From an uncultured Mycoplasmatota bacterium (lineage in GTDB: Bacteria > Bacillota_I > Bacilli_A > RF39 > UBA660), in assembly GCA_900544605.1 (NCBI GenBank), contig UQVP01000002.1:13709-77708 (forward strand): DNA of 64,000 nucleotides, read 5' to 3'. The notes beneath the pieces were generated by a model. That model saw only the letters and a list, made by a program, of their open reading frames with translations. It ran no database searches and was not told the DNA's origin. Position numbers and translations under genes: made by a program. Below, piece after piece: positions 61,501 to 61,888 of the stretch; within the stretch, counting starts at the first letter, position 1, and each line of letters opens with the position of its first letter.

Positions 61501-61529
61501 TTGTATTAAAATTTTTACTTTGTTATAAG
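61501..61529 (+). promoter_or_regulatory. Promoter of small-toxin mRNA 1
   Basis: TTGTAT, a 17-nt spacer ending in TGT, then TATAAG. Confidence 0.45.
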
Positions 61530-61606
61530 GCATTTGGATACATTTGAAATATATCAGGTGCCTTCCCTTTCTTTATTGTTATTAATATGGAAAGGTGGTG
61601 GTCTTT

Positions 61607-61684
61607 ATGACAAAAAGAGAATATTCTTTATTTATCATAATTCTACTATTACTTTTTATAGTAATCATTTTACTATTAAAATAA
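61607..61684 (+). CDS. 25-aa hydrophobic peptide, type I toxin candidate 1
   Basis: MTKREYSLFIIILLLLFIVIILLLK*. Ribosome-binding site GAAAGGTGG. The mRNA 5' and 3' ends are exact reverse complements, and a convergent antisense promoter is present. Confidence 0.6.
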   Translation: MTKREYSLFIIILLLLFIVIILLLK

Positions 61685-61796
61685 TAAAAGCATCTGATTT
61701 CAACAAACGTTGATTTCAGATGCATAACCCTTAAGGGACTGCATTTGATTCAGCCTTCAAATGTATCCTTTTTATTTTATGAGAAATATCTCATCT
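61678..61796 (-). ncRNA. Predicted antisense antitoxin RNA 1 (~120 nt)
   Basis: Minus-strand promoter: TTGAAA (61831-26), a 17-nt spacer with TGn, then TAGAAT (61808-03). Hairpin 61690-61723 is followed on the minus strand by TTTTATTAT. Confidence 0.5.
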
Positions 61797-61888
61797 GTAT
61801 ACATTCTAACATATTTATTTTTTTCTTTCAAGTGTATGTTTTTATAAAATTTGTATTTAAATTAACTATAATTTAAAAATTCATGCAT

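Follow-up and report, generated by a model that had tools for sequence, protein, structure and literature searches.

Which RNAs and which product are specified by a stretch of DNA where two promoters face each other across a 25-codon open reading frame (ORF)? We addressed this question for positions 61501 to 61831 of contig stretch UQVP01000002.1 (64,000 nucleotides, hereafter the window) from an uncultured Mycoplasmatota bacterium, a locus that an earlier note on this DNA had proposed to be a type I toxin-antitoxin (TA) module. Our analysis indicates that the locus is probably a tandem copy of a new chromosomal type I TA-like family of uncultured, very AT-rich gut Bacilli, in which an antisense RNA would remove the mRNA of a presumed toxin. 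The three elements of the earlier proposal, namely a hydrophobic ORF, a closed mRNA with a sequestered Shine-Dalgarno (SD) sequence and a convergent antisense RNA, have now gained comparative evidence from about 76 copies, in the form of compensatory changes, G-U pairs specific to one strand, promoters conserved on either strand and a codon-position pattern. As judged from these sequence comparisons, our results establish a pair of structured, conserved RNAs with their promoters, and show that the ORF is under coding constraint.

A predicted mRNA closed end to end and its convergent antisense RNA

The copy in question, module 1, comprises the following features, with strands given relative to the window.

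61501..61529, plus strand: toxin promoter 1, with a -35 box TTGTAT (61501-06), a 17-nt spacer and an extended -10 box TGtTATAAG (61521-29)
61536..61778, plus strand: predicted toxin mRNA 1, about 243 nt, starting at the 5′ G of helix P1 and ending with the U-tract
61536..61548, plus strand: 5′ arm of P1, GGAUACAUUUGAA, the extreme 5′ end of the mRNA
61553..61561, plus strand: 5′ arm of helix P2, AUCAGGUGC, whose partner in the minimum-energy fold is 61741-49, with an extension CCCUUU at 61565-70
61566..61595, plus strand: anti-SD CCUUUC (61566-71) and SD GAAAGG (61590-95), the ribosome-binding site being predicted to be paired
61607..61684, plus strand: ORF of 25 amino acids, MTKREYSLFIIILLLLFIVIILLLK, with ATG at 61607 and stop at 61684
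61741..61749, plus strand: 3′ arm of P2, GCAUUUGAU, from the minimum-energy fold and covariation
61756..61778, plus strand: 3′ arm of P1 (61756-68) and U-tract UUUUUAUUUU (61769-78), the predicted 3′ end of the mRNA
61676..61796, minus strand: antisense RNA 1, about 120 nt, with hairpin SL1, an A-rich linker, hairpin SL2, a small hairpin and terminator SL3
61779..61794, minus strand: SL1, the 5′ hairpin of the antisense RNA, outside the predicted mRNA and with a covarying stem
61690..61723, minus strand: SL3, the hairpin of the antisense RNA's intrinsic terminator, with UUUUAUUAUUUU (61689-61678) coming next on the minus strand
61803..61831, minus strand: antisense promoter 1, with a -35 box TTGAAA (61831-26), a 17-nt spacer, a TG and a -10 box TAGAAT (61808-03)

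To find relatives, the longest block common to module 1 and the module that follows it in the window, which lies at the mRNA 3′ end and antisense 5′ end, was taken as the seed of a 30-nt pattern. The pattern found 57 loci in species-representative genomes, and a covariance model built from the antisense region (R1) and run on these loci gave 76 full-length copies in 57 genome loci, two of them in this window. The earlier note had made conservation as a unit in relatives a test of its reading; the architecture does recur in the 76 copies, with covariation.

On the plus strand, the proposed promoter TTGTAT-N17-TATAAG is present, and its -10 box (TATAAG, 61524-29) is preceded by a TG (61521-22) that makes it an extended -10. 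Among 46 homologous modules, 42 match TATAAT in at least five of the six positions, 31 carry the TG, and in 41 the -10 box ends 5-7 nt ahead of the first base of P1, so that the first nucleotides of the transcript would lie inside the helix. The 13 nucleotides at this end, GGATACATTTGAA (61536-48), have their exact reverse complement in TTCAAATGTATCC (61756-68), with TTTTTATTTT (61769-78) right after it, as the earlier note had pointed out. P1 pairs the extreme 5′ end of the mRNA with the last bases ahead of the U-tract, and P2 joins a second pair of segments from the 5′ and 3′ untranslated regions (UTRs). The mRNA (61536-61778) folds at -81.6 kcal/mol, compared to -37.9 ± 3.7 kcal/mol for dinucleotide shuffles (z = -12). 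This value, together with z = -8.7 against shuffles for the mRNA of the second module and the 76 covarying copies, places the features of module 1 beyond chance.

Closure of the mRNA between its 5′ and 3′ ends is backed by compensatory changes. Within the subfamily of the window (20 sequences), 95.6% of the P1 and P2 cells were paired, compared to 27-43% when the partners were slid by 1-3 columns, and compensatory changes were found in 16 of the 22 pairs (8/12 in P1 and 8/10 in P2); none of 500 column shuffles reached these values. Results for a second subfamily were 95.7% paired cells and six compensatory pairs. We also performed an alignment-free test, in which cognate arms paired more stably than non-cognate ones both for P1 (-14.2 versus -8.8 kcal/mol) and for P2 (-20.0 versus -13.6 kcal/mol), a difference that 0 of 2000 permutations reached in either case. 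Wobble pairs in the two helices favoured the mRNA strand, with 93 G-U against 15 A-C cells.

The SD and the CCTTTC motif that had been proposed to pair with it are both where the earlier note placed them, but the full-length minimum-energy fold pairs CCCUUU with AAGGGA of the 3′-UTR and not with the SD. Whichever partner CCCUUU takes, the SD is predicted to be paired: its unpaired probability is 0.17 (mean of 46 modules) and that of the AUG 0.14, and in 36 of 55 isolated 5′-UTRs the core of the SD has at least four of its five bases paired. Averaged over 46 modules, the U-tract is unpaired with a probability of 0.97 and the 3′ arm of P1 with one of 0.06.

On the minus strand, the promoter read earlier as TTGAAA, a 17-nt spacer with TG, and TAGAAT is present and conserved across homologues. 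Quantification over 73 copies gave 96, 95 and 79% for the TTG of the -35 box, 100 and 97% for the TG, and 100, 100, 92 and 99% for TAnnAT, with almost no information in the 17-nt spacer; by its base frequencies, this element has the profile of a real sigma-A promoter. The hairpin at 61690-61723 is likewise present, and the minus-strand T-run behind it extends to the stop codon. The covariance model matches antisense RNA 1 at 61667-61797 (minus strand) with 90.2 bits. In 58 copies, 16 of the 22 pairs of its three hairpins (SL1, SL2 and SL3) show compensatory changes, including all eight pairs of SL3, where the ratio of G-U to A-C is 24:9 in favour of the minus strand; for the antisense hairpins as a whole, 99 G-U against 12 A-C cells favour that strand. 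In the SL1 stem, pair 5 occurs as AU, GC or GU and pair 6 as GC, AU or UA, and the outer pairs also vary in two loci (L049 and L053). A 5-codon mini-ORF (AUG...UAA), which begins 2 nt from the predicted transcription start, lies within SL1 (61779-61796, minus strand) and in all homologues. We rejected it as a peptide, and read it as the hairpin, because variants carry a stop at codon 3 and the stem covaries.

Because the two genes overlap, the antisense RNA is fully complementary to the 3′-UTR of the mRNA, over about 100 nt, and its terminator lies just short of the stop codon. SL2 is made of the complements of the 3′ arms of P2 and P1 and is a good hairpin in the antisense RNA only. Its wobble pairs turn into C-A mismatches on the mRNA strand, so that the long-range helices are favoured there. 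The A-rich linker between SL1 and SL2 has an unpaired probability of 0.61.

Peptides, copies and genomic surroundings

The 25-codon ORF described in the earlier note is present at 61607..61684, and its product has a charged N-terminus, one membrane-spanning stretch and a C-terminal Lys. At least four peptide subfamilies occur on the common RNA architecture, and every one of them combines a charged N-terminus with a single hydrophobic span.

Subfamily 1: MTKRE-type, 25 amino acids; both window copies belong here
Subfamily 2: MSKKDFLI-type, 27 amino acids
Subfamily 3: MKKRxFxIK...IKK, about 30 amino acids
Subfamily 4: type of 43-50 amino acids

Differences at codon positions 1, 2 and 3 numbered 1620, 1030 and 1887 in the first subfamily (21 copies) and 1197, 489 and 1500 in the second, position 2 being the least variable. 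In near-identical copies of the window locus from other samples, the polymorphisms of both ORFs were 5 synonymous to 2 non-synonymous. At the level of sequence, this pattern shows that the ORF is under coding constraint. That the peptide lies outside named families was borne out: Pfam, NCBIfam, PHROG and Rfam gave no match to it, and for six representative peptides Pfam, NCBIfam and PHROGs gave nothing meaningful, with no Pfam or NCBIfam match even at E ≤ 10.

The ORF is intact in about 59 of the 76 copies; about a fifth have lost or crippled it and keep the antisense gene. Two otherwise intact modules (L006:1374-1674 and L049:4103-4443) have ATA or ATT in place of the toxin start codon, another (L059:1659-1999) has an altered start region without ATG and a fourth (L042:6185-6447) carries an early stop in the ORF; from their sequences, these four look like naturally attenuated toxins. 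In orphan copies (L026:5569-5932, L012, L020, L033, L043, L047, L050 and L060) the toxin ORF is deleted or truncated, and the antisense promoter, the three hairpins and the terminator are retained. L026 is a close relative of the window, and its second module is without the 5′ half of the toxin gene.

The hosts are nearly all uncultured, low-GC gut Bacilli with genomes of about 1.5 Mb, under labels that include 'Mycoplasma sp. CAG:611', Candidatus Coprosoma, Candidatus Caccenecus and Erysipelotrichaceae metagenome-assembled genomes (MAGs). The toxin ORFs of several relatives end in TGA, so the code of these hosts is the standard bacterial one, even though some MAGs are labelled 'Mycoplasma' or 'Tenericutes'. 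A further 27 metagenome contigs, human gut among them, fit the 30-nt pattern, which had zero matches in viral contigs. An 18-nt pattern gave three viral matches, unrelated and judged to be chance, as was the match of the 30-nt pattern to one locus from Pseudomonadales (L051). Searches of plasmid and phage records by BLAST with both modules and by tblastn with one peptide returned nothing relevant. Tandem arrays are frequent, with up to four copies and with subfamilies mixed. The flanking genes are mostly unrelated between copies (60 of 73 clusters are singletons), and the loci showed association neither with transposases nor with prophages. Four gut metagenome contigs (L062, L067, L075 and L084) carry the same tandem pair as the window, with the 374-nt spacing kept and 6-41 differences per 790 nt; in L062, a single change (61541 C>G) would disrupt one P1 pair.

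Module 2 (about 61889-62205) is a paralogue immediately downstream of module 1 and about 70% identical to it.

61889..62152, plus strand: mRNA strand of module 2, with promoter boxes TTGTAT (61889-94) and TATAAT (61912-17) and the mRNA at 61924-62152
61983-62060, plus strand: ORF of module 2, MTSREKFLHIIIILLFILVFILLFK
62054..62205, minus strand: antisense RNA 2 (from about 62170 to 62054, terminator 62097-62066) and its promoter

Antisense promoter 2 reads TTTACA (62205-00), TG and TATTAT (62182-77) on the minus strand, and the covariance model matches antisense RNA 2 at 62043-62171 (minus strand) with 89.9 bits. Between the P1 helices of the two modules, two pairs have changed in a compensatory way, and one A-U of module 1 is G-U in module 2. 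Because the closing helices differ by compensatory changes, the mRNA-antisense pairs of the two modules are probably orthogonal.

The pair of modules has holA on one side and an ABC-transporter gene on the other, each encoded on the minus strand; no record was found for the exact protein sequence of the holA product. A Xer-type tyrosine recombinase gene (58241-59149, minus strand) lies about 2.4 kb upstream of the modules, followed by mgsA/rarA and holA, a context that looks like housekeeping and not like a mobile element. Elsewhere in the window, a full-length OLE RNA (Rfam RF01071, 400 bits) was found at 23676-24283 on the plus strand, flanked by genes for a UbiA-family prenyltransferase (21508-22353) and a rubrerythrin (24950-25492); an ORF of 183 amino acids just past it (24326-24877) is without a Pfam match. 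The presence of OLE RNA in a reduced-genome lineage of gut Bacilli of about 25% GC may merit attention.

How the antisense RNA would act, and what else the locus could be

We infer toxicity of the peptide, its neutralisation by the antisense RNA and, for the closing helix, a role as the terminator of the mRNA. The plus strand would yield the mRNA of about 243 nt, encoding a single-pass membrane peptide of 25 amino acids as the presumed toxin, and the minus strand a small RNA (sRNA), about 120 nt long, whose extended -10 promoter is strong. The mRNA would be closed end to end by P1 and P2, its 5′ end buried in P1 and its SD and AUG held in local structure. Being complementary to the whole 3′-UTR, the antisense RNA bears the same sequence as the 5′ arms of the mRNA, and so would compete with them. 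Its single-stranded A-rich linker would nucleate on the single-stranded U-tail, which is the only accessible part of the overlap in the closed mRNA (0.97 unpaired, against 0.06 for the P1 arm), and the antisense RNA would then invade P1 and P2 to give a duplex of about 100 bp. This duplex would be cut by a double-strand-specific RNase, and the freed 5′ end of the mRNA would open it to 5′-dependent decay, a route taken from what is established for bsrG/SR4 and txpA/RatA (PMC3834814, PMC3531473). The toxin message would be cleared for as long as the antisense RNA is produced.

Constrained folding was used to examine the effect of antisense binding on the mRNA. Masking of the 3′-UTR in silico raised the unpaired probability of the 5′ end from 0.09 to 0.47. 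Antisense binding as a switch of SD accessibility was unsupported, since the value for the SD moved from 0.17 to 0.20 (p = 0.2). The best duplexes of the antisense RNA with the initiation region reached -17.3 kcal/mol, compared to -16.3 kcal/mol for shuffled controls, at inconsistent positions, and a trans pairing of the Fst/SprA1 type with the SD and start codon was rejected as no better than shuffled. All in all, accessibility, masking and the null result for pairing at the initiation region make nucleation, displacement and decay the best supported model. A possible extension, which we put forward tentatively, is that the antisense RNA acts as a molecular mimic of the mRNA 5′ end, opening an mRNA that two helices have in effect circularised for exonucleolytic decay by toehold-type strand displacement. 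The outer helix would then double as a transcription terminator, the antisense RNA would dock on the 3′ U-tail, and the G-U/C-A asymmetry would let one DNA specify a local hairpin in the antisense RNA and long-range helices in the mRNA.

Mixed tandem arrays, unrelated flanks and decayed ORFs with the antisense gene kept are consistent with the population behaviour of a TA-like element. Several points weigh against this reading. Whatever state was modelled, the SD and AUG came out as paired, which leaves peptide production hard to explain, and it is unusual for an intrinsic terminator to consist of a helix that closes about 200 nt. A simple terminator scan flagged neither mRNA 3′ end and, on the antisense side, only that of module 2. 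Part of the near-invariance seen around the U-tract is an artefact of the pattern with which the copies were found. The hosts are uncultured.

The alternative that survives best accepts both RNAs as real and takes the peptide to be a small membrane protein that does no harm, acting as regulator or accessory subunit, with a cis-antisense RNA that tunes its expression. Many small hydrophobic bacterial proteins are non-toxic regulators, the peptides of this family match no toxin family, and their toxicity is presumed. However, for a housekeeping protein one would expect a single, syntenic copy, whereas the modules stand in arrays of divergent subfamilies at unrelated sites, and the copies with a lost or crippled ORF have yet retained the antisense gene. 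The heavy silencing of the ORF, through closure of the mRNA, sequestration of the SD and the strength of the antisense promoter, is a typical trait of genes for toxic products. We consider a harmless peptide unlikely.

Those same decayed copies bear on a second explanation, in which the minus-strand sRNA is the functional unit, acting in trans through its invariant 5′ hairpin and A-rich linker, with the ORFs as dispensable passengers. At least 12 copies are sRNA-only with promoter, hairpins and terminator intact, and the first 30 nt of the sRNA are almost identical over four peptide subfamilies. However, the invariance of this 5′ block is inflated by the scan pattern, SL2 and SL3 covary with the cognate mRNA 5′ arms, which is sensible only if the cis pair interacts, and the ORF is under coding constraint. 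Orphan antitoxins are in any case an expected decay product of TA loci, and a trans-acting sRNA as the whole function appears distinctly improbable.

It is very improbable that the locus is a non-coding repeat with terminal inverted repeats (like miniature inverted-repeat transposable elements or repetitive extragenic palindromes) or a set of chance features of 25% GC sequence, for although the modules are multi-copy and dispersed, with a 13-nt inverted repeat at their ends, and promoter-like hexamers are no commoner than in shuffled sequence (8 found, 8.4 expected), the terminal repeats covary instead of keeping one fixed sequence and tolerate G-U on one strand only, the folds are 9-12 standard deviations stabler than shuffles, 73 copies conserve where the promoters lie and not simply hexamer matches, the ORF has kept its frame, length and hydrophobic pattern, and neither an associated transposase nor viral or plasmid copies were seen.

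Under the preferred reading, of an antisense RNA that removes the mRNA of a presumed toxin, the analysis adds a covariation-supported type I TA-like family with at least four peptide subfamilies, and a clear case of a single DNA segment selected for different structures on each strand. The many naturally orthogonal mRNA-antisense pairs, whose arms covary, are possible parts for synthetic RNA regulators, and the putative toxins are candidate narrow-spectrum membrane peptides.

Comparison with known type I systems

Type I systems are generically defined by a hydrophobic peptide of fewer than 60 amino acids on a short mRNA, for which the window has 25 amino acids on about 243 nt, and by an antisense gene whose RNA pairs with the toxin mRNA, as the predicted RNA would. 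The remaining property, a toxic peptide neutralised by the antisense RNA, is supported indirectly by the decayed ORFs, the arrays and the varied contexts. T1TAdb holds 24 families and Rfam 13 antitoxin families (PMC8594479), and none of these matched. An Rfam scan of 61300-62300 at E ≤ 10 returned chance matches only (L17DE and U4); the L17DE match (21.7 bits against a cutoff of 37, at 61951-62017 on the minus strand) is the anti-SD/SD hairpin of module 2 and was judged to be chance. Our literature search found no paper joining 'type I toxin-antitoxin' with 'RF39', and in it we found no such system described for uncultured, reduced-genome gut Bacilli.

The general layout of Gram-positive type I systems has been reviewed (PMC8594479). 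Among Firmicute systems, Fst/RNA II (par, pAD1) and SprA1/SprA1AS share with the window convergent promoters and the sequestration of the 5′ end as well as of the SD. In Fst RNA I, a 5′ helix (5′-UH) sequesters the 5′ end and a 5′ stem-loop the SD, and Fst-type peptides carry a PXXXG motif (PMC7472228); the antisense RNA of Fst and SprA1 does not overlap the ORF (PMC8594479). Unlike Fst, peptides of the window family have neither PXXXG (no Pro/Gly motif) nor a charged C-terminal tail, the two transcripts have separate predicted terminators (61756-78 on the plus strand and 61723-61678 on the minus strand) instead of one shared bidirectional one, direct repeats (DRa/DRb) giving antisense pairing over the SD and start codon are missing, and neither RNA II of Rfam nor Fst_toxin of Pfam matched. 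The difference from SprA1/SprA1AS lies in the pairing of the 5′ domain in trans with the SD and start codon, for which the duplexes of the window RNAs were no better than shuffled.

In hok/Sok of plasmid R1 and AapA1/IsoA1 of Helicobacter pylori, the full-length mRNA is locked between its 5′ and 3′ ends and translationally inert. Franch and colleagues are said to have described, in 1997, the fold-back of hok mRNA and its refolding triggered by 3′-end processing. The P1 and P2 covariation points to a similar lock in the window mRNA, a resemblance that is functional only. In both known systems the antisense RNA acts at the 5′ region and 3′ trimming is needed first, whereas the antisense RNA of the window covers the 3′-UTR including the closing arms, and the window host is Gram-positive. 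Compared to hok/Sok, there is no Hok_Gef match in Pfam and no conserved overlapping upstream mok-like frame in the ORF list.

The layout resembles that of the Bacillus subtilis systems bsrG/SR4, txpA/RatA, bsrE/SR5 and yonT/SR6, which also combine a small hydrophobic peptide with a convergent, roughly 100-nt antisense RNA pairing to the 3′ region of the toxin mRNA. In these 3′-overlap systems, decay that depends on RNase III follows from the duplex, and SR4 has an effect on translation as well (PMC3834814, PMC3531473). No similarity of peptide (TxpA, BsrG, BsrE or YonT) or RNA (RatA or SR4-6) was found with Rfam, Pfam and NCBIfam, and the resemblance to BsrG/SR4 and TxpA/RatA is one of layout only. 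The B. subtilis antisense RNAs also overlap the ORF (PMC8594479), whereas the antisense terminator of the window ends before the stop codon, and the B. subtilis systems differ further in that loci of the window family showed no prophage association and no viral copies were found. Unlike the B. subtilis mRNAs, that of the window is closed by two long-range 5′-3′ helices, whose 5′ arms the antisense RNA copies. The family would unite features so far known separately, the hok-like end-to-end closure of the mRNA and the Bacillus-like antisense RNA overlapping its 3′ end; if the antisense RNA does act as a mimic that opens this closure through a toehold, this regulatory logic would be undescribed among type I systems and would offer a natural design for RNA switches that are orthogonal to one another.

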